Assembly (NCBI GenBank): GCA_030679985.1
Contig: JAUXSI010000026.1
Location: forward strand, 1-53,006
DNA length: 53,006 nt
From: Candidatus Moraniibacteriota bacterium
GTDB taxonomy: Bacteria > Patescibacteriota > Minisyncoccia > Moranbacterales > UBA2206
Reading direction: 5' to 3'
In this document: piece after piece, positions 7,889-53,006 of the stretch
How the letters are laid out: the number at the start of each line of letters is the position of its first letter
Position numbering within the stretch: position 1 is the first letter of the stretch
Made by a program: the position numbers and the translations under genes
Notes under the pieces: generated by a model
The model's database searches: none
Seen by the model: only the letters and a program-made list of their open reading frames with translations
Told to the model about the DNA's origin: nothing

Positions 7889-8908
7889 ATGAAAGAGGAA
7901 AGCAAAAAAACAGGAGAAGCCAACAAGGCCGTGGATACGGTCGTGGATTCGATCAAGGAGAAATTCGGGGAGGGCATAATCATGAAATTGGGGGACGTGA
8001 AAAGGGTCGATATCGAAGCTATCCCGACCGGTTCGGTTTCATTGGACATCGCTTTGGGTATCGGAGGTATCCCGCGCGGCCGCGTGATTGAGATATATGG
8101 TCCTGAATCGTCCGGTAAAACAACGCTGACTTTGCACATCATCGCCAATGCGCAACGGGCTGGCGGCGTGGCGGCCTTTATTGACGCGGAACACGCGCTT
8201 GATCCGGAATACGCCAGAAAAATCGGCGTGAACATCAACGATCTGTTGATTTCGCAACCGGATAATGGCGAGCAAGCCTTGGATATCGTTGATGCCTTGG
8301 TGCTTTCCGGCGCGATCAGTGTGATCGTAGTGGACTCGGTGGCAGCCTTGGTGCCGAGAGCGGAAATCGAAGGCGATATGGGTGACCAGCATATGGGGCG
8401 GCAAGCGAGGCTGATGTCGCAAGCTTTGCGCAAGTTGACTTCGATCGTGGCCAAATCCAATTGCACCGTTATTTTCATCAACCAGATCCGGATGAAAATC
8501 GGGGTGGTATTCGGCAATCCAGAAACGACTACGGGCGGCAACGCTTTGAAATTCTATTCGTCCGTGCGGATCGAAGTGCGCAAGGCGGCGCAGATCAAAA
8601 AGGGCGAAGACATCGTGGGCAATCGCGTGAAGGTGAAGATCGTGAAAAACAAAGTGGCGCCGCCTTTTAAGGCGACGGAGTTTGATATCATGTATAACGA
8701 AGGGATCTCAGCTTCCGGCGATGCGCTCGACACCGCGGTGAAATACGAAGTGGTTGCCAAAAAAGGCAATTCATATGCATTCGGTGAGATTAAATTAGGA
8801 GTCGGACGTGAAGCGGCCAAGCAAGCCATCAAAGATGATCCGAAACTGATTAAGGAAATTACCAAGGAAATCAATAAAAAAATCAAGGAGCTTGAGGCGT
8901 TGGCATAA
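7889..8908 (+). CDS. recA: recombinase RecA
   Basis: [13 protein letters not shown] Walker [31 protein letters not shown]; full length. Confidence 0.98.
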
Positions 8909-10501: not shown

Positions 10502-11059
10502 TTATGCCCGGCCGACATATTCGCCTCTTTCGGTATTGACGATTATCTTATCGCCTTCATTTACGAAAAGCGGAGCGGACACCTTGAGGCCGGTTTCAAG
10601 GGTGACGACTTTGCCGCCGGTTGAAACGGTATTGCCCTTGATCCCCGGCGGGGCCTCCACGACTTCCAAAACCACCTTGACCGGGAGCTCGATGTTGATC
10701 GGTGTGTCGTTGAAATTCAAAACTACGATTTCCGTCCCCTCGATGAGATAGTCCGTAGCCGAACCGAGAACGGCTTTAGGCAGCGAAAACTGCTCATAGG
10801 ATCCGTTATCCATAAAGGCATAGCTTTCGCCTTCTTGGTAAAGGAATTGGGCTTTGGATTTTCTGATATCGGCTTCTTCGAGCTGATCGGCGCCTTGAAA
10901 AGTCTTTTCCAGGACCGCGCCGGTAATCAAGTTCTTAAGCTTGGTGCGCAGGACGGATCCGGCGCGTCCGGTTTTGGATTGTTCATGGAAAAGGACGGCA
11001 TAGGGAGCTTTTTCATGGACGATATTTTTGCCTGTCTTGATATCGCTTATATTTAACAT
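10502..11059 (-). CDS. efp: translation elongation factor P
   Basis: Full-length EF-P with three domains and C-terminal VNTERGEYVGRA. Start placed at the second ATG (11059), which sits at the same distance from the conserved GATTCGCATCGGCAAT block as the rpsR start. The ORF track extends to 11065. Confidence 0.93.
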   Translation of the reverse strand: MLNISDIKTGKNIVHEKAPYAVLFHEQSKTGRAGSVLRTKLKNLITGAVLEKTFQGADQLEEADIRKSKAQFLYQEGESYAFMDNGSYEQFSLPKAVLGSATDYLIEGTEIVVLNFNDTPINIELPVKVVLEVVEAPPGIKGNTVSTGGKVVTLETGLKVSAPLFVNEGDKIIVNTERGEYVGRA

Positions 11060-11162
11060 AATCATTGCCGATGCGAATCTACGGATTGCAATACGGATTT
11101 ACGAAATTTTCGGAACTGTTTGTTCGTAAATCCGTCGATGTTTCGTAGTTTCGAATCGGTTT
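11060..11162. repeat. structured intergenic repeat, copy A (rpsR-efp spacer; lacks the GC palindrome)
   Basis: TTGCCGATGCGAATCTACGGAT...; stem GGATTTACGAA (11095-11105) / TTCGTAAATCC (11123-11133) with a 17-nt loop ATTTTCGGAACTGTTTG. Confidence 0.85.
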
Positions 11163-11402
11163 TTATTTTACTACGAATGGTACCAGCGCCATAACGCGGG
11201 CTTTTTTGATGGCGGTTGCCAAGGCTCGCTGGTGCTTGGTGCAAGTCCCGTGTCTTTTTGGCGGGTATATCTTGCCCTGTGAGTTGGTGAAACGCTTGAT
11301 CAGATAGACATCCTTGAAATCGATCTTATCCATTTTTATATCGCAAAAATGGCAAACTTTTTTTTCAGCTTTGGTCGGTTCGTTATTGTTGTATATTTTC
11401 AT
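11163..11402 (-). CDS. rpsR: 30S ribosomal protein S18
   Basis: CHFCDIKMDKIDFKDVYLIKRF...GKIYPPKRHGTCTKHQRALATAIKKARVMALVPF is canonical bS18. Confidence 0.96.
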   Translation of the reverse strand: MKIYNNNEPTKAEKKVCHFCDIKMDKIDFKDVYLIKRFTNSQGKIYPPKRHGTCTKHQRALATAIKKARVMALVPFVVK

Positions 11403-11530
11403 AATTATTGCCGATGCGAATCTACGAATTGAAATACGCCTGCCTGCCTGCAGGCAGGAATCTACGAAATTTTCGGAACTGTTTGTTCGTAGATTCGAAA
11501 TATGTCCGTAGTTTCGAACCGGGTTATTGT
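11403..11530. repeat. structured intergenic repeat, copy B (ssb-rpsR spacer)
   Basis: Same 5' block. 16-bp palindrome CCTGCCTGCAGGCAGG (11443-11458). Stem GAATCTACGAA (11458-11468) / TTCGTAGATTC (11486-11496) with a loop identical to copy A. Confidence 0.9.
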
Positions 11531-12016
11531 TTAAAAGGGTACGTCTTCAAGCCTGATTTCATCCTGCTCCTCGTCAAGGTTGATGGTCGGGATTTCTTCC
11601 TCGGCTTGTTGTGGGCGGTCGTTTTGCGGACGTTGTTGCTGGGGAGAGACCGGTTTGTTGAATGAGCCAGGTGCGTTGGATGCTCCGGCGGCGCGTGAGC
11701 CTAATTGCATATTTTCCGCGATTACTTCGGTCACTCTCCGTTCCGATCCGTCCTTGGCGGTGTATTTCCGCGTTTCCAATCTGCCTTCGATGAAAGCTTC
11801 CTGACCCTTGGTCAGGTATTGTCCGGCAATTTCCGCCAACCTGCCCCAAAGGACGATGTTGTGGAATTCGGTTTTGTCTTGCCTTTGCCCGCTCTTGTCT
11901 TTCCAAAAACGGTTGGTGGCGAGGCTTAGCGTCGCGACAGATTGGCCGCTGGTCGTGTTGCGGATTTCCGGGTCGCGGGTCAGGCGGCCGACTAACATCA
12001 CTTTGTTAAGATTCAT
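11531..12016 (-). CDS. ssb: single-stranded DNA-binding protein
   Basis: MNLNKVMLVGRLTRDPEIR... OB fold, Gln/Pro-rich linker and acidic tip LEDVPF. The 30 extra N-terminal codons in the ORF track (to 12106) read through repeat element C. Confidence 0.95.
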   Translation of the reverse strand: MNLNKVMLVGRLTRDPEIRNTTSGQSVATLSLATNRFWKDKSGQRQDKTEFHNIVLWGRLAEIAGQYLTKGQEAFIEGRLETRKYTAKDGSERRVTEVIAENMQLGSRAAGASNAPGSFNKPVSPQQQRPQNDRPQQAEEEIPTINLDEEQDEIRLEDVPF

Positions 12017-12140
12017 TTGTTTTATGCCGATGCGAATCCACGAATTGAAATGCGCCTGTCTGCCGGCAGGCAGGAATCTATGAAATTTCCGAAACGGGCC
12101 ATCCATAGATCCGAAATGCTTCCGTGGTTTCGAAACGGTA
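12017..12140. repeat. structured intergenic repeat, copy C (rpsF-ssb spacer)
   Basis: TGCCGATGCGAATCCACGAATTGAAATGCG. Palindrome CCTGTCTGCCGGCAGGCAGG (12055-12074). Stem ATCTATG (12076-12082) / CATAGAT (12104-12110). Confidence 0.9.
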
Positions 12141-12674
12141 TTAGATGTTTAAAATCTCTTCCAATTTTTTATCGATATCCTCGGCGGTTTTTTCCGCGTG
12201 GACAGGTTTCTTTTCGGTAGTTTTTTCAGTTTTTCCGTCTTTGGCGGCCGGGGTCTCCGTTTGACCTGGGATGGTTTTCAAGTCAGGGGTTTTGGCGGCA
12301 GCGACAACTGGCGTTTTTACCGATTTGGCTTTTCTTTCCGATACTGCGCTGGCTGCGCCGATTCTTTCTTCCTTGGTCTTCAGTTCCGGTAATTCCGAAG
12401 CGCGACTGATGACTGAGCGCAGGATATTGGTGTAGAGGTTGAGTTTGCGCGTGATGGATTGGATGCTGGTCGGATCTTCAAGTTCGAAGCGGCGTGCCAC
12501 ATAGAACCCGTGGGTTTCATGCTTGACCTGGTAGGCCAACTTTCTTTTTTCGACGACTTCTTTTTCGTCAAAAACTCCGCCTTCCGCAGTCACGATTTCT
12601 TGCGCTCCGGCCTTGATCGCTTCTAGCTCAGCTTCCTTGGAGGCCGCGACCAGATAGAACAGTTCATACTTCAT
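12141..12674 (-). CDS. rpsF: 30S ribosomal protein S6 with long C-terminal low-complexity tail
   Basis: MKYELFYLV...HGFYVARRFE core of bS6. Classic rpsF-ssb-rpsR order. About 75 extra Lys/Ala/Thr/Glu-rich residues at the C-terminus. Confidence 0.93.
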   Translation of the reverse strand: MKYELFYLVAASKEAELEAIKAGAQEIVTAEGGVFDEKEVVEKRKLAYQVKHETHGFYVARRFELEDPTSIQSITRKLNLYTNILRSVISRASELPELKTKEERIGAASAVSERKAKSVKTPVVAAAKTPDLKTIPGQTETPAAKDGKTEKTTEKKPVHAEKTAEDIDKKLEEILNI

Positions 12675-14249: not shown

Positions 14250-16044
14250 GAATAATACAAAGAAAGATGTATATACTCTGGGAATAAATTCCGCCTATCA
14301 TGAACCATCCGTTTGTCTGATAAAGAACGGTAAGGTAATCGCAGCGGTAGAAGAAGAGCGGTTCAATCGGATGAAGCATGGGAAACATTGCTTGATAGAC
14401 AATCCGCATGAGCTACCGTACAACGCTTTGGACTATTGTCTAAAACAGGGTGGTATAACTTTAGATGATGTGGATCAAATTGGCTTTACTTTCAATCCAA
14501 TCAACAGACTAACGAAAAATATCGGCCTTGAGGAGGATGTGGATGCGGGTGATTGGGGTAGTGAGAAAGGTGAGCGGCTGTACTATAAATTATCTATGTC
14601 GGTTCCTCAGATATTGGAAAAGAAATATAAAGCGAAAATTGCACACAAGTGGAATTGGTTGCCCCATCATACTTGTCACGCGGCTAGCGCTTATTATGAC
14701 TCGCCTTTCTCCGAGGCGGCCGTTATGACCTTCGATGGAATAGGTGAATTTGCCAGCATTACATTGGGCTATGGCAAAAATAACAACCTGTCTATATTTA
14801 AGGAGGCAGGTGAATATCCGAGCTCGCTAGGATTCCAATGGACTAAGGCTTCCCGCTTCTTGGGTATCTTAGTCGATGGCGCAGGTGAATATGGCGCAGG
14901 TAAGATTATGGCTCTGGCTTCCTACGGTAATCCGGATAAATATTATGAGACTTTCAAAAAATTTTTGAGTTATGATAAGGAAGGAAACTTTGTTGTGGAT
15001 GGTGATGTGATGCAATTCCGAAAAAGTACGCATGAAAATTTCGAGAAAATGTTCGGTTTCAAGGCGCGCAAGGAGGATGGGGAAATAACGCAAGACCATA
15101 TGGATTTCGCGGCAGCTCTACAAAAAATTACCAACGAAATCATGTTGGGTTATGCGCAGCAGGTTTATAAATTGACCAAGCAAGACAATCTTTGTATGGC
15201 AGGGGGTGTCACTCTGAATTGCACCAGCAATACTAACTTGTTGGAAAAAAGCAGATTCAAGGATATCTATATCCAACCAGGTGCCAATGATATGGGAACT
15301 TCTGTCGGCGCGGCTTATTATTGCTACCACGAAATCTTAGGTCAAGAAAGAAGAAATGTTGCAGCTAAAACTCCCTATACCGGCCCGGAATATGGTGAAA
15401 AGGAAATTTTGAAAGCGCTCAAGAATGAAAAGGGCGTCCAGTATGTCAAGGTGACCGGCATCGAGAAGGCGACTGCGAAACTGATTGCCGAAGGTAAGGT
15501 TATTGGATGGGTGCAAGGGCGGGCTGAATTCGGACCGCGAGCCTTAGGCAATAGGAGTCTCTTGGGTGATCCAAGGAAGATCGAAATGTTCAAAAGGATC
15601 AGCTTGGATATAAAAAAAAGAGAATGGTATCGTCCGCTAGCCCCGATTGTCATGGATGAATATGTCGACCAATGGTTCAATCGTCCGAAGCACGGAGCGG
15701 AATCGGATAAATGGATGCTTTTCGCTTATCCGATACGGACGGGAAAGAGAAAATTAATTCCAGCCGTGACGCATCATGATGGGACAGGTAGAGTGCAAGT
15801 AGTTTCGAGGGATACCAATTCAAGATTGCATAAGTTGATAAGCCACTTTAACTCGCTGACTGGAGTACCGGTTTTGATTAATACCTCGTTCAATAGTAAT
15901 GAGCCGATGGTATTGACACCAGAACATGCTATCAACACTTTCTTGAAGTCTGGAAAAGACGGAATTGATGTCCTGGTAATCGGAAGCTATTTGATCACCC
16001 GCAAGGATATTGATGCGAAGAAATTAGCGAAGCATAAATCCTAA
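14248..16044 (+). CDS. NodU/CmcH/TobZ-family carbamoyltransferase
   Basis: N-terminal Kae1-like ASKHA fold (LGINSAYHEPSVCLIKNGKVIAAVEEERFNRMKH). C-terminal carbamoyltransferase domain (GRAEFGPRALGNRSLLGDP ... TSFN). Confidence 0.9.
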   Translation: MNNTKKDVYTLGINSAYHEPSVCLIKNGKVIAAVEEERFNRMKHGKHCLIDNPHELPYNALDYCLKQGGITLDDVDQIGFTFNPINRLTKNIGLEEDVDAGDWGSEKGERLYYKLSMSVPQILEKKYKAKIAHKWNWLPHHTCHAASAYYDSPFSEAAVMTFDGIGEFASITLGYGKNNNLSIFKEAGEYPSSLGFQWTKASRFLGILVDGAGEYGAGKIMALASYGNPDKYYETFKKFLSYDKEGNFVVDGDVMQFRKSTHENFEKMFGFKARKEDGEITQDHMDFAAALQKITNEIMLGYAQQVYKLTKQDNLCMAGGVTLNCTSNTNLLEKSRFKDIYIQPGANDMGTSVGAAYYCYHEILGQERRNVAAKTPYTGPEYGEKEILKALKNEKGVQYVKVTGIEKATAKLIAEGKVIGWVQGRAEFGPRALGNRSLLGDPRKIEMFKRISLDIKKREWYRPLAPIVMDEYVDQWFNRPKHGAESDKWMLFAYPIRTGKRKLIPAVTHHDGTGRVQVVSRDTNSRLHKLISHFNSLTGVPVLINTSFNSNEPMVLTPEHAINTFLKSGKDGIDVLVIGSYLITRKDIDAKKLAKHKS

Positions 16045-21223: not shown

Positions 21224-22207
21224 CTAAATTATAAAACCGAGCTTCTGTTTCACATCGAACATTTTTTGGGCGGCGATAAGGCGGACTTTGGCGGCACCTT
21301 TAGCAAGGATATCCAGGACTTCCTCGTCGCTGATGGCGCCCATCCTTTCCTGGAGAGGCTTCAAGAAACTGACTAATGCGTCAGCCAGGCCGTTTTTGAA
21401 ATCGCCATAACCCTTGCCGGCGTAGAGCTTTTCAATCTCAGCCGGAGTCCGGTCAGCTAGGAGGGAATAAATATTGATTAGGTTTTTTAAAGCCGGTTTG
21501 CTGTCATTATAAATTATTTCACTGCCGGAATCCGTCACGGCTTTTTTGATTTTCTTGCGGATGATTTCTTCCGAATCAGTCAGAGCTATGTAGTTGTATT
21601 CTGATTTAGCAGATTTGCTCATCTTTTTGGTCGGATCATCCAGGCCCATAATCCTCATTCCTTCCTCTTTGATGAAATGTTGCGGAATGATGAAAGTTTC
21701 GCCGAATTTTTTGTTGAAGCGAGCGGCCAAATCACGAGCCAGCTCGATATGCTGTAATTGGTCTTCGCCGACCGGCACGGTTTCCGTATTGTAGAGCAGA
21801 ATATCAGCCGCCATCAAAACCGGGTAATCGAATAGTCCGACACTGGCGCTTTCCCTCCCATTTTTTTGCGATTTGTCCTTGAACTGGGTCATTTTTTCCA
21901 ATTCGGGTATTTTAGCCAGGGTGTTCAGGATCCAAGCTAATTCAGTGTGTTCCGACACATGCGATTGGATGAAGATGGAAGACTTTTTAGGATCGATGCC
22001 GGCGGCCAGATATATCTTGGCGACTTCGATCGTTTTTTGGCGCAGGATTTCCGGATCCTGCGGCACGGTGATGGCGTGCAGGTCTACCACGCAAAAAATC
22101 GAATCATATTCTTCTTGCAATTTGACCCAGTTTTTGATGGCGCCTAAATAGTTGCCGAGGTGCAGGTTGCCGGATGGTTGGATGCCGGAAAAAATCCGTT
22201 GTTTCAT
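21224..22207 (-). CDS. trpS: tryptophan--tRNA ligase
   Basis: GIQPSGNLHLGNYLG (HIGH-type motif), KMSKS, class I Trp-specific length. Confidence 0.96.
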   Translation of the reverse strand: MKQRIFSGIQPSGNLHLGNYLGAIKNWVKLQEEYDSIFCVVDLHAITVPQDPEILRQKTIEVAKIYLAAGIDPKKSSIFIQSHVSEHTELAWILNTLAKIPELEKMTQFKDKSQKNGRESASVGLFDYPVLMAADILLYNTETVPVGEDQLQHIELARDLAARFNKKFGETFIIPQHFIKEEGMRIMGLDDPTKKMSKSAKSEYNYIALTDSEEIIRKKIKKAVTDSGSEIIYNDSKPALKNLINIYSLLADRTPAEIEKLYAGKGYGDFKNGLADALVSFLKPLQERMGAISDEEVLDILAKGAAKVRLIAAQKMFDVKQKLGFII

Positions 22208-44749: not shown

Positions 44750-45466
44750 TTGGGACTGGAAATAATTCGAAAACATAAAGCTATGGGAAGAAGAAATATT
44801 AAAAATAAGCTAATCATCCTTTTTGGCATAATGATTATGGCGGCTTTCATATTTTCGGATTCCCAGGCGGTTTTGGTCCGGCGTGCCAGTATGGCCGGTT
44901 TTGACGCGGGAGGATATTTCAATGCCGGCTATCCGTTGGGAATCCTTGATCTTGATACATATGCCGCAGGTCAATGTGAAAATCAGATGGACGGAAAAGT
45001 GTGCTCGGAACTGTGTCCCGGAACGGTCAAAGGTGAAGAAATAATAGTTTCGGAGGGAGAGAGCGTGCCAGCGGAACCGGCGATCGTGCCTCCCGTGGAA
45101 AAGGTGGAAGTGATTCCGGCGCAACCGGAAGTCCCGTCTGCGCCCAAGGTCGCGGCAAAAAAAGCCAGTAGTAAGACGAAGCCTGCCGCGGTGGCGGTGA
45201 ATCCTCCGAAAATGACGGCTGGCCGGGGAGTCCGGATAGGCGTGGCGGGTCCGATCGCCGGAAAAACGAAAGTGGTCAATGGCCAGCGGGTCTGTCCCAA
45301 AAAGAACGACCATCCGGCTAAGAGTGATAGGAACAAGCCAGGTCATATCGACGCCGAATGTTGTCTGGATCCGGATGAGACCCCGAACGCGAACTGTTAT
45401 TATCCGCCGGAAAAGTACGGCAAGCTTATCCAGCGGTATCTGGCCGGCAAGAAAAACAAGAAATAA
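44750..45466 (+). CDS. membrane-anchored hypothetical protein with Cys-rich C-terminus
   Basis: TM helix (LIILFGIMIMAAFIF), Pro/Val/Ala linker and C-terminal CPKK...AECCLDPDETPNANCYYPPEKYG. The start may be the internal ATG at 44783. Confidence 0.6.
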   Translation: MGLEIIRKHKAMGRRNIKNKLIILFGIMIMAAFIFSDSQAVLVRRASMAGFDAGGYFNAGYPLGILDLDTYAAGQCENQMDGKVCSELCPGTVKGEEIIVSEGESVPAEPAIVPPVEKVEVIPAQPEVPSAPKVAAKKASSKTKPAAVAVNPPKMTAGRGVRIGVAGPIAGKTKVVNGQRVCPKKNDHPAKSDRNKPGHIDAECCLDPDETPNANCYYPPEKYGKLIQRYLAGKKNKK

Positions 45467-45469
45467 TTC

Positions 45470-45498
45470 TTGCCGTAGCGGGGATATTCTGGTTTAAT
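45470..45498 (+). promoter_or_regulatory. candidate uvrA promoter TTGCCG-N17-TTTAAT
   Basis: Hexamers at 45470-45475 and 45493-45498. Confidence 0.4.
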
Positions 45499-45567
45499 GG
45501 CAATACCGCAACGGAACCGATTCGCGATGGAGCGATCGCATGCCGGGTTTGGCCGCGGAGCAATCTT

Positions 45568-48453
45568 ATGGACAAAATAGTCATCAAAGGCGCCAGGGAA
45601 CACAATTTGAAGAATATAGACCTGGAATTGCCGCGCGATAAATTCATAGTCTTTACGGGTATCAGCGGGTCGGGCAAATCGACCTTGGCTTTTGATACGA
45701 TTTTTGCCGAAGGCCAGCGGCGGTATTTGGAAAGCCTATCTTCTTACGCCCGGCAATTCTTGGGCCAGATGGACAAGCCGGACGTGGATTATATCGAAGG
45801 CTTGTCGCCGGCCATCTCCATTTCGCAGAAAGCCGCTTCACAGAATCCGCGCTCGACGGTCGGCACGGTGACGGAAATCCATGACTATCTGCGTCTGCTG
45901 TTCGCCAAGATCGGTATCCCGCATTGTCCGGTTTGCGGACGCGAGATCGCCAAGCTTTCCACGGATGAAATCGTGGATCGGGTGATCGGAATCGGCGAGG
46001 GCCGGGAAATTGAAATTCTGGCGCCGATCGTACGGCAACGGAAGGGCGAATATTCTTCGCTGTTGGAGGAGATGTGGAAGCGGGGATTTTCCGGCGCTTA
46101 TATTAATGGCAAAAAAATCGAATTGTCGGCCAAGGCGGGCGCGGCGGCCAAATTGGAGAGATATAAAAAGCACAACATCGATATCACGGTGGATACCGTG
46201 AAGATCCAGGATGGGAATATCTCGCGGATTTTTGAAGACGTGGAGAAAGCTTTGAAATTGGCGGATGGTTTAGTGAAAATAAAAATCCAAAACTCAAAAT
46301 CCAAAAATAAATCAGAATCGGAATTTGTGTATAATCAGAAATTATCTTGCCCAGTGCACGAAGTGGAATTCCCAGCGCTGGAGCCGCGGTTGTTTTCTTT
46401 CAATTCGCCGTATGGCGCGTGTCCCGCTTGTGAAGGTTTGGGCACGAAAAAAGAAATCGATCCCGACCTGGTCATCCCCGACAATACCAAGACTATCGCG
46501 GAGGGTGGGGTTTTCCCGTGGAATTTCAAAAAAAACAATTATTATGGCGGCGTGCTGTTGTCGGTATGCAAATACTTCCATATCGCGGATAATGTCAGGA
46601 TCAAAGATTTGCCCGAACGCCAATTGAACATCCTGTTGTTCGGGGCGGCGGACGCGGAGGATATGGTTCCGGAAGAAGATGCGGAGGAAGTGCCGATCAA
46701 AGTGCGGGCCAAGACCGGCACGAGCTGGAGTTTCCATATGCGCTGGCGCGGAGTGACCGGTTTTTTGCAAGACCGTTATTTCAAGACCGAATCGGAGGCG
46801 GTGCGCGAAGGCATCGAAAAATATATGTCGCAGAATCCCTGCTCGGTTTGCAAGGGCAAAAGATATAAACCGGAAGTTTTACTGGTGACGGTCGGAGGCA
46901 GGAATATCGCCGGCGTGTCGGATGTGAGCGTGGCGGATTCGCTGGATTTTTTCAAAAAATTGGAAATAAACAAGACTGAGGAGTTGATCGCGGGCAGGAT
47001 TTTGAAGGAAATCCAAGCGCGGCTCGGATTTTTGGAAAACGTCGGATTGGGCTATCTGACTTTGTCGCGCTCTGCGGCTACTTTGGCGGGCGGCGAATCG
47101 CAACGGATCCGTTTGGCTTCGCAGATCGGTTCGCAGTTGGTAGGGGTGCTGTATATTTTGGACGAGCCGTCCATCGGATTGCACGCGCGGGACAATACCA
47201 AATTACTCGACACGCTTTTGCAGCTGCGCGATATCGGCAATACCCTGATCGTGATCGAACATGACGAGGAGACGATGCGCGAGGCGGATTATCTGGTGGA
47301 TATCGGACCGGGCGCGGGACGTTTGGGCGGGGAAATCGTAGCCCAAGGCACGCCGGAGGAAGTGATGAAAAACCAGAAATCCTTGACGGCCAAGTATCTG
47401 AACCATGAACTCAAAATCGAAGTGCCGGCGGCGCGGCGCGGCGTAAAGAATAAGAAATGGCTGGTGGTGCGTGGGGCGCGGGAAAATAATTTGAAAAACG
47501 TGACGGTGGAATTTCCTCTGAAGGTCTTGACGGTGGTGACCGGAGTGTCCGGTTCGGGCAAATCGACGCTGGTGGAAGATATATTATATAAAACCTTATC
47601 GAGCAAACTGATGCGTTCCTTGGAAAAACCGGGCAAGCACTCGGAAATCATCGGCTTGCAGCATATTAACAAAGTGATTATGATCGACCAGTCGCCGATC
47701 GGCCGCACGCCCAGATCGAACCCCGCGACGTATTCCGGGCTTTTCACGCCGATCCGCGAACTGTTCGCTTCGACCAAGGGGGCGAAAAGCAAAGGTTACG
47801 GGCCAGGCCGCTTTTCTTTCAATGTGAAGGGCGGGCGGTGCGACAACTGCCAGGGCGAGGGCCATATCAAGATCGAGATGCAATTTATGCCGGACGTCTA
47901 TCTGCCGTGCGATGTGTGCAAAGGCAAGCGGTACAACCGGGAAACCCTGGAAGTCAGATATAAGGAAAAAAATATTTCCGAGGTTTTGGATATGACCGTT
48001 TCGGAAGCCAAAGATTTTTTCCAGAGCTTCCATGATATTTATGACAAGTTAGCGGTTTTGGAAGATGTCGGTTTGGGCTATATCCATCTGGGCCAATCAG
48101 CCACCACGCTTTCCGGCGGAGAGGCGCAACGGATCAAATTGGCCACCGAGCTTTCTCGGCGCGCTACCGGCGATACGCTCTACATTTTGGACGAGCCGAC
48201 GACCGGCCTGCACTTCGACGACATTAAGAAATTATTGATCGTCCTAAACCGCCTGGTGGACGCGGGCAATACGGTAATCGTGATCGAGCACAATATGGAT
48301 GTCATCAAGACGGCCGATTGGATCATCGACTTGGGTCCGGAAGGCGGCGACCAGGGCGGGCGCGTCATCGTGACTGGCTCTCCGGAAGATGTCGCCACTT
48401 ACTATGAAGAAAGCTATACTGCGAAATATCTGCGGGATTTTTTGAAACGCTGA
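45568..48453 (+). CDS. uvrA: excinuclease ABC subunit A (copy 1)
   Basis: [14 protein letters not shown] and [13 protein letters not shown] Walker A motifs. LSGGESQRIRLA and [12 protein letters not shown] signatures. Zinc modules present. Full class-I length. Confidence 0.97.
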   Translation: MDKIVIKGAREHNLKNIDLELPRDKFIVFTGISGSGKSTLAFDTIFAEGQRRYLESLSSYARQFLGQMDKPDVDYIEGLSPAISISQKAASQNPRSTVGTVTEIHDYLRLLFAKIGIPHCPVCGREIAKLSTDEIVDRVIGIGEGREIEILAPIVRQRKGEYSSLLEEMWKRGFSGAYINGKKIELSAKAGAAAKLERYKKHNIDITVDTVKIQDGNISRIFEDVEKALKLADGLVKIKIQNSKSKNKSESEFVYNQKLSCPVHEVEFPALEPRLFSFNSPYGACPACEGLGTKKEIDPDLVIPDNTKTIAEGGVFPWNFKKNNYYGGVLLSVCKYFHIADNVRIKDLPERQLNILLFGAADAEDMVPEEDAEEVPIKVRAKTGTSWSFHMRWRGVTGFLQDRYFKTESEAVREGIEKYMSQNPCSVCKGKRYKPEVLLVTVGGRNIAGVSDVSVADSLDFFKKLEINKTEELIAGRILKEIQARLGFLENVGLGYLTLSRSAATLAGGESQRIRLASQIGSQLVGVLYILDEPSIGLHARDNTKLLDTLLQLRDIGNTLIVIEHDEETMREADYLVDIGPGAGRLGGEIVAQGTPEEVMKNQKSLTAKYLNHELKIEVPAARRGVKNKKWLVVRGARENNLKNVTVEFPLKVLTVVTGVSGSGKSTLVEDILYKTLSSKLMRSLEKPGKHSEIIGLQHINKVIMIDQSPIGRTPRSNPATYSGLFTPIRELFASTKGAKSKGYGPGRFSFNVKGGRCDNCQGEGHIKIEMQFMPDVYLPCDVCKGKRYNRETLEVRYKEKNISEVLDMTVSEAKDFFQSFHDIYDKLAVLEDVGLGYIHLGQSATTLSGGEAQRIKLATELSRRATGDTLYILDEPTTGLHFDDIKKLLIVLNRLVDAGNTVIVIEHNMDVIKTADWIIDLGPEGGDQGGRVIVTGSPEDVATYYEESYTAKYLRDFLKR
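46282..46309 (+). repeat. in-frame AT-rich 14-nt tandem duplication inside uvrA copy 1
   Basis: AAAATCCAAAACTC followed by AAAATCCAAAAATA; encodes part of KIQNSKSKNKSE. Confidence 0.8.
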
Positions 48454-48469
48454 TAGCCTCGACGACCCT

Positions 48470-49774
48470 ATGGATATGATAAAGATAATTGAAAAAGCCA
48501 AGACCTTGCCGCAGGATCCCGGGGTGTATATTTTTCGCGATGCGAAGAAGGAAATTATTTACGTCGGTAAGGCGACGGATTTGAGGTCGCGGGTCAGCTC
48601 ATACTTCCGCAATTATAAGGGCAGTGATCGGCCGATCGAAGCGATGATCCATCAAGTGGAAAGCGTCGAGGTGGAAGAAACGGATTCGGTTCTGGACGCG
48701 TTGATCCTGGAGGCCAACCTTATCCGGAAGCATCAGCCGAAATATAACGTGCTGGGGAAGGACGATAAATCGTTCGCGTATTTCGCCATAACCGAAGAAG
48801 AATTTCCGCGGGTGGTGATTTTGAGAGAAACAGAAATAGATAAAATTTCAAATTTTAAATTTCAAATTTCAAATAAAATCCAAAAAATAAAATCCAAAAA
48901 AGTAGATAAAATAGTCTATGCTAAAGTTTTTGGACCATACACTTCAAAGAAGCAGATGGAAATCGCGCTGAAAATAATCCGGAGAATTTTCCCTTTCCAT
49001 TCAAATAAGCAAAAAACGGAAAAGGGCTGCCTGGATTTCCAACTGGGCCGATGCCCGGGGCCATACGCGCGGGCGATTTCCAAAGCGGATTACCGGAAAA
49101 ATATCCGGGGCATCCGGATGATTTTGGAGGGCAAGAAAAAGAATCTGCTTGGAAAATTGGAAAGGGAAATGGAATTATTGGCGGAAAGCGATGAATTCGA
49201 AAAAGCCGCCGAGGTACGGAATAAGATTTTCGCCTTGAAGCATATCCAGGACGTGGCGCTTATTTCGTCCGGAGGCGATAAATTACAAATTACAAATTCA
49301 AAACTATTCCGAGTGGAGGCCTATGACATCTCCAATATTTCCGGCCGGCAAGCGGTGGGTTCGATGGCCGTATTTGAGAATGGCGAGCCGAATAAAAACG
49401 AATATCGCAAATTCCGCATAAAGACCGTGGAAGGCGCCAACGATGTGGCGATGATGGGCGAGGTCCTGCTGCGGCGCTTCAAGAACGCGTGGCGGCAGCC
49501 GGACCTGATATTGCTGGATGGCGGGCAGGGACATCTGAATATGGCGCAAAAACTTCTGTATGATCTGGGGTTGGCGATTCCGCTGGCGGCAGTGGCGAAA
49601 GGCCCGACCAGGAAAAAGATAGAAGTCAGGGTCCCGTCCGATCCGGCGTCCGGTTTTTCCAAAGAGATTGAGAATATATTGCGTGACAAATCGTTACTTA
49701 AAAACATTATGGACGAAGCGCACCGTTTCGCGGTCAGCTATCATCGGAAAGTGAGGAAAAGCGAGTTTATTTGA
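48470..49774 (+). CDS. uvrC: excinuclease ABC subunit C, short form lacking the C-terminal (HhH)2 domain
   Basis: GIY-YIG (GVYIFRD..IIYVGKATDLRSRVSSY), UVR domain (EFEKAAEVRNKIFALKHI) and RNase-H-like endonuclease domain (RVEAYDISNISG...DEAHRFAVSYHRK). Stops right after the last. Confidence 0.93.
   Translation: MDMIKIIEKAKTLPQDPGVYIFRDAKKEIIYVGKATDLRSRVSSYFRNYKGSDRPIEAMIHQVESVEVEETDSVLDALILEANLIRKHQPKYNVLGKDDKSFAYFAITEEEFPRVVILRETEIDKISNFKFQISNKIQKIKSKKVDKIVYAKVFGPYTSKKQMEIALKIIRRIFPFHSNKQKTEKGCLDFQLGRCPGPYARAISKADYRKNIRGIRMILEGKKKNLLGKLEREMELLAESDEFEKAAEVRNKIFALKHIQDVALISSGGDKLQITNSKLFRVEAYDISNISGRQAVGSMAVFENGEPNKNEYRKFRIKTVEGANDVAMMGEVLLRRFKNAWRQPDLILLDGGQGHLNMAQKLLYDLGLAIPLAAVAKGPTRKKIEVRVPSDPASGFSKEIENILRDKSLLKNIMDEAHRFAVSYHRKVRKSEFI
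48843..48900 (+). repeat. in-frame AT-rich 14-nt tandem duplications inside uvrC
   Basis: AAATTTCAAATTTT/AAATTTCAAATTTC (48843-48870), then ATAAAATCCAAAAA x2 perfect (48873-48900). Encodes ISNFKFQISNKIQKIKSKK. Confidence 0.85.
49280..49300 (+). repeat. 7-nt x3 tandem repeat inside uvrC
   Basis: AAATTAC AAATTAC AAATTCA, encoding KLQITNS. Confidence 0.7.
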
Positions 49775-49920
49775 CCTTTGCCCGGCGGTATCGGCGCGGA
49801 TTTGTCGCGGAAGCCGGGGGTCGGGAATCTAAGCGGCCCGGTTCCTTTACAAAGACGTCGGAATGCTCTAAAATAATTATTTAGAATATCGTTTTTTACT
49901 CCTAACAACTATTTACAAAT

Positions 49921-52773
49921 ATGGCCAAAGTCACTCCAAAAGTCAGGGATAAGATCATTATCAGAGGCGCCCGGGTCAATAATCTGAAAAACGTGGATAT
50001 CGATGTGCCACGGGACCAATTGGTGGTCGTGACGGGCTTGTCCGGATCGGGAAAATCATCCTTGGCGTTCGACGTGATTTATGCCGAAGGCAATCGCCGG
50101 TATTTGGAGGGGATGTCTTCATATGCGCGGCAATTTTTGGACGTGGGGGCGAAGCCCGATGTGGATAAAGTGGAGAACCTGAGCCCGACGATTTCCATCG
50201 ACCAGAAAAGTTTGAGCCGCAGTCCGCGCTCGACAGTCGGGACGCTGACGGAAATTTATGATTATCTGCGTGTGCTGTTCGCCAAGGTCGGCGCGCCGCA
50301 TTGTCCGAAATGCGGCACCGTGATGACCCGCAAGAGCAACCAGGAAATGCTGGATGAGCTTTTGGGATTGCCGGATCAGACGCAGGTATCGATCCTGGCC
50401 AGGCTAAAGGACGACGGCAAGAATTCCAAAGAGATTTTGCGCGGCATAAGCCAGATCGGCTATGCGCGTGCGCGCCTCAATGGCAAGATAATGCTAGTCA
50501 GCGAAGCCTTGATGATCGCCAGCGAGCAGTTTGAGAATGCGATCGAAGTCGTAGTGGATCGGGTAGCCATCAAACACAAGAATCCGGATAGCGAAAGGAT
50601 TTTGGATTCGATTGAAACGGCTTTGAAAGTCGGCAACGGTTCTATCACGGTTTCGATCAATAATGTCGAAGACCGGGTATATAATAAGGATTTCGTCTGC
50701 CACGATTGCCATACGCGGATTTCGGAAATAACCCCCCGCCATTTTTCTTTCAATAGTCCGGAAGGAGCTTGTGTCCACTGTTCCGGCTTGGGCATTACCA
50801 AAGAGGTCGATATCGACCTGGTGATGCCCAATAAGAATCTGACGCTCGCGGAGGGGGCGATTTTGCCGTGGAGCAAAACGAACGGCCGCGGCAACGGACA
50901 TAATAATTATCTCCATATATTGGAAGTTTTGGGAAAGGAATATGGTTTTTCAGTGGCGTTGCCGGTCAAGAAACTCTCCCCGGAAGCATTGGAAATGATC
51001 TTTTACGGCCCGGAAAAAAAAGAGCTCTTGCTTGAGCAGAAGGACGATATGGGTGGCGTGAAAGAAGTGCGGGTGATGTTCGATGGCGTGGTCCCGATTC
51101 TTAAAAGGAAATACCAGGAAGCCAGTTCGGATTATGTCCGGAATGATTTGGAAAAATATATGCTGGAAAAAACCTGTCCGGTCTGCGCCGGCCAAAGGTT
51201 GAAGGATAAGTTTTTGGCAGTGATGGTCAGTGGAAAATCGATTGACGATGTGGTGAAGATGGACTTGGCCAAATTCGTGGCATTTTTAGAGGAGTTGGCC
51301 GGCGATTCGAAAGCGGACAGCTCGAGAAGGGATATTGCCGCGCCTTTGATCAAGGAGATGAAGTTGAAAACCGAAGCGCTGATAAATGTCGGATTGGAAT
51401 ATCTTTCGCTTTCCCGCGGAGCCAATTCGATTTCAGGCGGCGAAGCCCAGCGGATCAGGCTGGCAACCCAGATCGGTTCTGAACTGATGGGCATCACCTA
51501 TGTCCTGGACGAGCCGTCTATCGGATTGCATAACCGCGATACGGAAAAATTGATCGCGACGATGCAAGCCTTGAAAGAAGCCGGCAATTCATTGATCGTG
51601 GTGGAGCACGATGACGACATCATCCGCAAGGCCGACTGGATAATCGATATGGGGCCGGGCGCGGGAGAAGAGGGCGGACAGGTCATTTTTCAAGGCGATT
51701 TCAAAAAGTTGTTGGATTCCAAAAACTTGACCGCCCAATATCTGACCGGCAAGAAAAAAGTCGCGGATAAGAAATCTTTCCGCAAGGGCAACAACAAATC
51801 AATCGAAATTATCGGAGCCAAGGAACATAATTTGAAAAAAATAGACGTGGAGATTCCGCTGGGGAAATTCGTTTCCATTACGGGCGTATCGGGTTCCGGC
51901 AAGTCGACCTTGGTTTCGGACATTCTGGCGAAAGCGCTGGCAAGGCATTTTTTCGGCGCCAAAGATATGCCGGGAGCGCATAGCAAGATCAAGGGATTGA
52001 ATAATATCGATAAAGTCATCAGCATCAACCAGTCCCCGATCGGTCGGACCCCGCGTTCCAATGCCGCGACTTATACGGGCGTGTTTTCCTTGATCCGCGA
52101 ATTGTTCGTTTCTACGGAAGAAGCCAGTAGCCGGGGATATACCCCGAGCCGGTTCAGTTTCAATATGAAGGGCGGACGATGCGAAGTTTGCCAAGGCGAC
52201 GGAACTAAGAAAATCGAGATGCATCTTTTGCCGGATATGTATGTCAAATGCGAATCCTGCGGCGGCACGAGATATAACCAGAAGACGCTTGATATCGAAT
52301 ATCAGGGAGTGAATATCGCCGAAGTGCTGGATATGAGCGTTTCCTACGCGCTATGTTTTTTCAAAAAATCACCCTTGGTGGTGGAAAAACTGCGGACTCT
52401 CGAACAGGTCGGCCTGGGCTATTTGAAATTGGGCCAGAGCGCGACCAATCTGTCCGGCGGCGAGGCGCAAAGGATCAAGCTGGCGACGGAGCTTTCCCGG
52501 AAATCGACCGGTAAGACATTGTATATCTTGGATGAGCCGACCATCGGTTTGCATTTTGAAGACGTGAAGAGGCTATTAGGCGTCTTGGACGCGCTGGTGG
52601 ACAAGGGCAATTCGGTGCTGGTGGTCGAGCATAACATCGATGTCATCCGCAATTCCGATTGGGTGATCGATCTCGGACCGGACGGCGGCGACAAAGGCGG
52701 AGAGGTCGTTTTTGCCGGAACTCCGGACAAGTTGAAAAACGCCAAAAGGAGCTGGACGGGGAAATATCTCTAG
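49921..52773 (+). CDS. uvrA: excinuclease ABC subunit A (copy 2, full-length paralogue)
   Basis: [14 protein letters not shown] and [13 protein letters not shown] Walker A motifs. Two LSGGEAQRI signatures. CHDC...CVHC and CEVC...CESC zinc modules. Confidence 0.97.
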
Positions 52774-52774
52774 A

Positions 52775-52802
52775 AATTTTTAATTTCCAATTTTTAATTT
52801 TA
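52775..52802. repeat. 14-nt tandem duplication just after the uvrA2 stop
   Basis: AATTTTTAATTTCC / AATTTTTAATTTTA (12 of 14 identical). Confidence 0.7.
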
Positions 52803-52808
52803 TAAATA

Positions 52809-52840
52809 CCTGCCTGCCGGTAGGCGGGAATCATAAATTT
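52809..52840. repeat. partial copy of the repeat core downstream of uvrA2
   Basis: AAATAC-CTGCCTGCCGGTAGGCGGG-AATCATAAATTTT aligns with AAATACGC-CTGCCTGCCTGCAGGCAGG-AATCTACGAAATTTT of copy B. The hairpin closes with G-U pairs on the plus strand. Confidence 0.6.
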
Positions 52841-52905
52841 TAAATTTTTTAAACCTATATTTATCCAATCGATATTTTAGGTATTAAAAATTAAAACATT
52901 ATTTA

Positions 52906-52935
52906 AAAAATTATAAAATTAAAAATTATAAAATT
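52906..52935. repeat. perfect 15-nt x2 tandem repeat
   Basis: AAAAATTATAAAATT twice, directly upstream of the partial CDS at 52936. Confidence 0.8.
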
Positions 52936-53006
52936 GTGTCCAGCAATCTTTCTAAGCACATCCTTACGACCCTAGTTTATTATGACGTTATGGATTATCC
53001 GATGAC
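52936..53006 (+). CDS. 5' end of an unidentified CDS running off the window
   Basis: GTG 52936, then open frame SSNLSKHILTTLVYYDVMDYPMT to the window edge. Only 23 codons visible. Confidence 0.3.
   Translation, partial: MSSNLSKHILTTLVYYDVMDYPM

Follow-up and report, generated by a model that had tools for sequence, protein, structure and literature searches.

Each of the three spacers that separate rpsF, ssb, rpsR and efp in a Candidatus Moraniibacteriota genome (assembly GCA_030679985.1) is occupied by one imperfect palindrome of 92–112 nucleotides (nt), and this raises the question of whether such elements belong to the operon as structured RNA or came to it as DNA. The window analysed is positions 1 to 53,006 of contig JAUXSI010000026.1, and within it the spacers lie at 11060-11162, 11403-11530 and 12017-12140. 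We consider it likely, at a probability of roughly 0.7, that the spacer elements are gene-less hairpin copies of a dispersed inverted-repeat family, the full-length form of which carries a GxxExxY nuclease gene. The elements look inserted and are probably selfish DNA, not operon-specific regulatory RNA. An earlier reading of the window, hereafter the original prediction, had offered both kinds of explanation, namely an RNA or translational element selected for its stem and an element of the repetitive extragenic palindrome (REP) or MITE (miniature inverted-repeat transposable element) type.

Palindromic elements in the operon spacers

The three spacers are homologous, with a mean column identity of 78% in their alignment, and were also recovered as repeat families D5, D14 and D15. 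Copy A has the stem CGGATTTACGAA/TTCGTAAATCCG, copy B has GGAATCTACGAA/TTCGTAGATTCG with a 17-nt loop identical to that of copy A, and copy C has ..CTATG../..CATAG... On the minus strand, every operon element terminates in GATTCGCATCGGCA, 8–10 nt upstream of the ATG. The shared structured blocks, the stems and loops and the element end just before the next ATG were thus borne out as the original prediction had described them. The outer stem also pairs, and two mismatches (U.C and A.A) recur among the aligned copies.

Each spacer can form a long imperfect hairpin, and the fold of the coding strand was stronger than that of shuffled sequences (z = -6.2, -5.4 and -2.6). The complementary strand gave z = -5.1, -3.4 and -2.9, with antisense energies equal or lower; such equal folding of both strands is expected of any DNA palindrome. 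No Rfam match reached the gathering score in the window, where the sole weak match was unrelated (E = 7) and the tRNA scan was likewise negative, and Rfam and tRNA scans at or beside the units of the other loci returned nothing except the 5S gene itself. A known RNA family was therefore rejected as the identity of these elements.

The operon had been described as normally tightly packed, which does not hold in this clade, since the gaps were mostly long in the 22 relatives tabulated (17–146 nt between rpsF and ssb). Many of these gaps are filled by palindromes made of other short words.

The repeat unit and its distribution

The source genome (G000) comprises 1.07 Mb in 58 contigs (C-numbers), and the relatives (other G-numbers) are 41 genomes of the same order, in which a pattern of two 12-mers was searched with up to 3 mismatches. 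Each arm of the element is a 36-nt unit, TTCGTAGATTCG-N7/8-TTCGTAGWTTCG-N-ATCGG, also written TTCGTAGATTCG-N7-TTCGTAGTTTCG-N-ATCGG where the spacer is 7 nt. The 12-mer TTCGTAGWTTCG occurs twice in the unit, always 19 nt (sometimes 20) from start to start, followed by N-ATCGG, and the two phased 12-mers place TTCG at arm positions 1, 9, 20 and 28. In the palindromic element, two such units stand in opposite orientation, each with its ATCGG end outward.

The source genome holds 24 exact 12-mers and about 15 units. Outside the operon, units precede tsf, iscU, rplQ, rplO, lexA, mraZ, a glycosyltransferase gene, one 5S rRNA gene and a 170-aa open reading frame (ORF) resembling the C-terminal part of Fpg/Nei. 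The unit pattern was present in 17 of the 41 relatives, with up to 31 copies (G024), and the reversed control pattern gave no match in any of the 41. In its 36-nt inverted ends and many dispersed copies, the family resembles a MITE. The REP/MITE-like option of the original prediction is supported by the dispersed inverted units, by the gene-bearing form and by the differences in occupancy between genomes described below.

Random scatter without relation to transcripts, which the original prediction had named as a finding that would speak against its structural reading, was not what we saw. All copies examined fall within transcription units, in the interval from a stop codon to the following start and once ahead of a 5S rRNA; the elements occupy short transcribed spacers or a 5' untranslated region downstream of an intact native promoter. 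The same three operon spacers hold orthologous copies in G001, in G007 (two of the three) and in G024. The operon lacks the TTCGTAG element in G002, a member of the same genus with a 96%-identical Ssb, and in most other relatives.

A nuclease gene between the arms

The evidence that links the hairpins to a gene comes from the lexA locus on C15. There the SOS promoter is followed by three tandem reversed units, the GxxExxY gene (1644-2030), a single forward unit and the lexA ATG, and the native SOS promoter is intact upstream of the insert. This full-length cassette is about 0.6 kb long and contains a single gene of 129 aa, the product of which is a GxxExxY protein of the PD-(D/E)XK type (PF13366, 8.6e-21; TIGR04256, 3.5e-20). 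The D...E-x-K catalytic motif is kept in 9 of 10 aligned homologues, and the PD-(D/E)XK residues are present in the C15 protein. The longer form with the same ends therefore encodes a PD-(D/E)XK protein and not a known transposase, the enzymatic activity of GxxExxY proteins being putative.

The same lexA insert was found in G024 and G026, so that the lexA-linked, gene-bearing copy occurs in three genomes of two families; it is absent from the congener G002, whose LexA is 96% identical. A gene 75–79% identical, with the same arms, lies 5' of mreB in G004 and G012. At mraZ, a gene-less palindrome is inserted downstream of the retained native promoter and its GTGG repeats. At C19:~15570-15660 of the source genome and at L060, this region reads as a conserved TTGACA-N17-TAAAAT followed by MraZ-operator-like GTGG(G/T) repeats; in G000 and in G024 alike, the TTCGTAG palindrome stands between these and the ATG.

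Each of the 30 GxxExxY loci retrieved from the relatives was inspected. With few exceptions they occupy the gap from a stop codon to the following ATG and have the orientation of the downstream gene (lexA, mreB, ileS, hydrogenase large subunit, nusB or fusA), and nearly all are bracketed by inverted arrays of a short word with the same spacing. The mean inverted-repeat score of the flanks was 21.0, compared with 10.3 and 9.6 in two controls. The flanking word follows the protein tree: TTCGTAG, ATTCGTTGATT, AATTCGGAT, TTTGTAA, TTCGTAA, TTAGAGATT, and AATCAGTG with GTGGTTCTGA ends. A clade-1 gene (at least 66% identical) was found in 5 of the 17 genomes with the TTCGTAG motif and in none of the 24 without it. 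Based on this evidence of clade-specific word arrays around GxxExxY loci, the hairpins in the window would be gene-less members of the TTCGTAG branch. At one locus (L123; G038:C5:5772-6155), the GxxExxY gene and its word arrays lie in frame inside a 661-aa open frame without stops, the flanks of which read as gatB.

A wider survey covered 76 loci with homologues 56–79% identical, mostly from Bacteroidota, Chloroflexota, Nitrospirota, Ignavibacteria, Cyanobacteria and other phyla outside the candidate phyla radiation (CPR). The flank score was at least 16 in 38 of the 76, compared with 0–2 of 76 in controls, and the flank ends were typically GTCTGAAC plus TGATT-type words. The function of PF13366 is listed as 'Unknown' (PMC3424549), and our literature searches found no paper on these repeat arrays or on GxxExxY function. 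A bolder proposal is that GxxExxY nucleases and their phased-word inverted arrays form an undescribed repeat-and-nuclease system across phyla, possibly a minimal mobile element, in which the nuclease would recognise its own arrays and the gene-less hairpins would be dispersed sites; we regard this proposal as speculative and rather improbable. On that proposal, as the gene-bearing copy of this lineage lies between the SOS promoter and lexA, the nuclease, and with it any mobility or hairpin cutting, would be induced by DNA damage.

Turnover and insertion sites

Occupancy differs between congeners, G000 and G001 contrasting with G002 in the operon and at lexA. Inside the source bin, a 5S rRNA site is filled in C39 and empty in the syntenic C21. 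A stretch of about 6.5 kb in C39 has its syntenic counterpart in C21, at 81–96% identity, and bin contamination is given as 4%. This divergence ruled out two alleles of one population as the source of the difference and indicates that the bin contains two related populations, to the minor one of which some of the contigs with units may belong.

In most relatives, about 14 nt separate the 5S gene from a small membrane-protein gene upstream of it, and the C39 palindrome is inserted in that gap. In G000 (C21:6032-6146) and at L131-L152, 5S lies about 14–40 nt 3' of the membrane-protein gene (C-terminus ...PVINAF); both are on one strand and no promoter separates them, which suggests that in many relatives 5S rRNA and a protein gene share a transcript.

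The ribosomal-protein cluster is another site where genomes differ. G024 has six near-identical 100-nt copies there, before L2, S19, L24, L6, L18 and S5 (as read from N-termini), and the source genome has copies before rplO and rplQ, that is, in other spacers.

Stem covariation and a possible role of the transcript

The hairpin might instead be a functional RNA element of the operon transcript, for instance one that signals processing or stability or acts as a translational operator, and it might be an exapted repeat. Such a role would fit the position of all examined copies inside transcription units, the strong coding-strand folds, the retention of orthologous copies in G000, G001, G007 and G024, and an RNase III-like ORF (NERLEFLGD motif) on C38. 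Covariation was compared with shuffles in 23 palindromic copies from six genomes. In the inner stem, 258 of 276 cells were Watson-Crick, with 18 broken and five compensated double changes; the shuffles had a mean of 0.9 and reached 5 in 1 of 2000. In the outer stem, 339 of 414 cells were Watson-Crick and 53 were broken, and the two compensated double changes were no better than the shuffles (mean 2.7).

The five compensated inner-stem changes all come from a single genus, in operon copies of G000 and G001. TAAATCC, a variant arm, is common to different spacers, being found in copy A of G000 and copy B of G001; this speaks for a small number of events and for copies having exchanged sequence. 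No bias of wobble pairs towards the transcribed strand was seen (15 sense and 18 antisense). At the DNA level, template switching is a documented route to paired changes, as it homogenises the arms of inverted repeats (PMC8604942).

Of the claim that the stem is selected as a structure, the part that stood is the compensation of the inner stem above shuffles; the broken pairs of the inner stem, the outer stem with 2 compensated and 53 broken, and the lack of wobble bias did not agree with it. Non-compensatory stem changes throughout the genome, which the original prediction itself had listed as counting against structural selection, are what we found for most of the structure. These data at most weakly support selection of the stem as an RNA structure. 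The RNA may have a role, given that all elements are transcribed and the genome has an RNase III-like ORF, yet nothing observed requires it. Considering also that the antisense strand folds as well or better, that Rfam gave no match, that this element is also found before unrelated genes and on both sides of a nuclease gene, and that the operon of G002 and of most other relatives does without it, we judge a functional RNA element of the operon to be unlikely.

Translation start and expression signals

The genes ssb, rpsR and efp have no Shine-Dalgarno (SD) sequence, as originally noted, but this absence is genome-wide rather than specific to the elements. SD-like 4-mers are barely enriched in the genome, occurring 5' of 113 of 991 long ORFs, against 86 of 991 in a control window, and element-free spacers in relatives are equally SD-less. 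The organism appears to initiate translation without SD pairing. The A/T-rich 7–12 nt before the ATG resemble those of element-free spacers; together with the lack of SD use in the genome, this does not favour the suggestion that the element supplies the initiation region. Insertion at 8–10 nt from an ATG may be tolerated because the lineage does not use SD pairing.

The 36-nt unit might also be a portable DNA expression signal with a start for each gene, acting either as an outward promoter or as the operator of a direct-repeat-binding regulator. Its direct 12-mer repeats at fixed spacing point to the ATG, and an A-rich tract precedes the unit in the G024 copies. In addition, TAGWTTCG resembles TAnnTTTG, which we take to be the -7 box of Bacteroidetes. 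However, tRNA promoters in the source genome are canonical (TTGACw-N17-TAtAnT), the native promoters and operators of lexA and mraZ are retained upstream of the inserts, and on the minus strand of the three spacers no TTGACA-like and TATAAT-like hexamers were found 16–18 nt apart facing the gene. The same evidence led us to reject a promoter for leaderless or short-leader mRNAs, including the Bacteroidetes -33/-7 type. Moreover, in copies B and C the gene-facing unit has its spacing broken by the 20-nt insert, and the copy preceding 5S lies within a co-directional gene pair. A portable expression signal is, in our estimation, very improbable.

Three narrower candidates were also discarded. The unit is not the promoter of a stand-alone 5S gene, as 5S trails the membrane-protein gene in most relatives. 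An alternative sigma factor was rejected because the number of Sigma70_r2 genes varies without regard to the motif, G037 having one sigma factor and 6 motifs. The unit is not a LexA (SOS) box, since LexA is also encoded in genomes that lack the motif, and the clade's true box is AGTGATATAATATCACT. The lexA promoter of the order (G000 C15:~2190-2225; L069-L097) reads TTGACAGTGAT...AGTGATATAATATCACT, with a canonical -35/-10 overlapped by a GTGATA/TATCAC palindrome that is presumably the SOS box, and a DnaA-box-like TTATCCACA often lies just upstream of it.

Weighing the inserted-repeat interpretation

Several points weigh against the interpretation of the spacer elements as gene-less copies of a nuclease-bearing repeat family. 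The compensation in the inner stem exceeds that of shuffles. To our knowledge, no known chemistry would allow transposition by a 129-aa nuclease alone. Three genomes (G007, G014 and G037) carry 6–14 units but have no close cognate gene. Neither a target-site duplication nor a clean excision scar was seen at the lexA pair (G002 and G000) or the 5S pair (C21 and C39), where the junctions may have drifted, the 5S contigs being only 81–96% identical. Near-identical strains that might reveal movement were not found in a metagenome search, in which the exact 24-mer gave no match and the degenerate pattern gave 7 contigs, 4 of them aligning to the operon at only about 76% identity. Finally, the persistence of orthologous A, B and C copies in four genera could mean a benefit to the host.

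If the repeat family is a partner of the nuclease, the phased words may be binding or cutting sites of the cognate enzyme, and copies would be spread or maintained by its action together with host repair. The hairpin potential would then be a by-product of the mirror-image ends, and the few compensated stem changes may have come from arm-to-arm homogenisation or exchange between copies. The hairpin of the operon mRNA (about 30 bp, two stems) would be at most a secondary feature, for example as a substrate of the host RNase III-like enzyme.

Comparison with known systems

Intervening sequences of 23S rRNA are removed from the transcript at the RNA level. As described for Coxiella (PMC4990558), they offer an example of a selfish insert with a small ORF inside a transcript, and the topology of the lexA cassette matches; RNase III and flanking inverted repeats also figure in that paper. 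Unlike the present elements, those inserts sit in rRNA helices and encode S23p-type proteins.

The family resembles REP/REPIN sequences and their RAYT enzymes (PMC3733652) in consisting of short extragenic palindromes that are dispersed and often paired as inverted doublets, giving larger hairpins. The two also have in common many gene-less copies, one or few flanked enzyme genes and transcribed intergenic locations. In contrast, the gene found between the arms here is PD-(D/E)XK GxxExxY and not a Y1/HUH transposase, no search for PF01797 having been made, and the arms are phased direct 12-mer arrays, whereas a REP is a single GC-rich stem with a GTAG tag.

A small nuclease paired with a multicopy cognate short repeat around genes is known from the NTS (dRS3) repeats and the Ssn GIY-YIG nuclease of Neisseria (PMC11893778). 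In that system, the specificities of repeat and nuclease co-vary across homologues, and here the flanking word appears to co-vary with the protein clade. The folds differ, being GIY-YIG there and PD-(D/E)XK here. For Ssn, both cleavage of single-stranded DNA and a modulating effect on transformation have been shown (PMC11893778), whereas GxxExxY proteins are not known to have any activity.

Correia- and ERIC-type MITEs are likewise imperfect palindromes of about 100–150 nt with terminal inverted repeats, which insert at intergenic or intercistronic sites and are co-transcribed as RNase-cleavable hairpins. In contrast, a target-site duplication was not seen here, no known transposase family is associated and the ends are phased-word arrays. 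MITEs of this kind are the subject of two reviews (PMC10969869, PMC3184786). Judged by these likenesses, the element is a variant of a known repeat type, a dispersed palindromic repeat apparently paired with its own small nuclease gene.

Features of the window and additional observations

The coordinates of the operon genes and elements are given in Table 1. The GC-rich palindrome that interrupts elements B and C (CCTGCCTGCCGGCAGGCAGG) belongs to a dispersed module of its own, present 21 times in the 1.07-Mb genome, namely as the two copies in the table, one at 52809-52828 of the window and 18 on further contigs. It scored as terminator-like on the minus (coding) strand. Besides nesting within TTCGTAG elements, it adjoins some tRNA genes.

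Table 1. Positions of the operon genes, the spacer elements and the nested module in the window.
Feature	Position	Strand	Remarks
rpsF (ribosomal protein S6)	12141..12674	-	first operon gene; no element upstream
Element C, rpsF-ssb spacer	12027..12138	-	112 nt; A-like architecture, most diverged copy; interrupted by GC palindrome
GC-rich palindrome module, second copy	12055..12074	.	nested in element C
ssb	11531..12016	-	start MNLNKVMLVGRL, common to relatives
Element B, ssb-rpsR spacer	11411..11522	-	112 nt; A-like architecture, 17-nt loop as in A; interrupted by GC palindrome
GC-rich palindrome module (CCTGCCTGCCTGCAGGCAGG)	11439..11458	.	20 nt; in element B, between distal 12-mer and N8 of the gene-proximal arm
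rpsR (ribosomal protein S18)	11163..11402	-	
Element A, rpsR-efp spacer	11068..11159	-	92 nt
Element A, left arm: proximal 12-mer and CCGATG end	11068-11085	+	
Element A, left arm: N8	11086-11093	+	
Element A, left arm: distal 12-mer	11094-11105	+	
Element A, loop	11106-11122	+	
Element A, right arm: distal 12-mer	11123-11134	+	
Element A, right arm: N7	11135-11141	+	
Element A, right arm: proximal 12-mer and AATCGG end	11142-11159	+	
efp	10502..11059	-	start MLNISDIKTGK at 11059, common to relatives

Two observations concern other repeats. T-rich word arrays with a period of about 8 nt (TTTGGATTT, TTTAGAATTT and TTTGAAATT) lie directly 5' of tRNA-Asp, tRNA-Ile and tmRNA in the source genome (C8:~1600-1690, C50:~21260-21345 and C41:~8290-8380) and may be a further word-array family. 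At 45400-53000 of the window, repeat families D1-D4, D7-D10 and D17 are internal or paralogous repeats of two adjacent large ABC-ATPase genes, which are UvrA-like by their Walker motifs; these repeats are ordinary coding paralogy.

Implications

The finding accounts for long structured spacers in essential operons of ultra-small CPR bacteria by repeat colonisation, the same gaps being filled by different word families in different genomes. It also cautions against taking complementary changes between the arms of one palindromic repeat for proof of a functional RNA. For the very large GxxExxY/PF13366 family, it provides a concrete candidate partner in the word arrays that flank its own genes. 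If it is true that the nuclease acts on these arrays, the pair would be a third repeat-nuclease pairing beside REP/RAYT and NTS/Ssn, and one that is apparently under SOS control.

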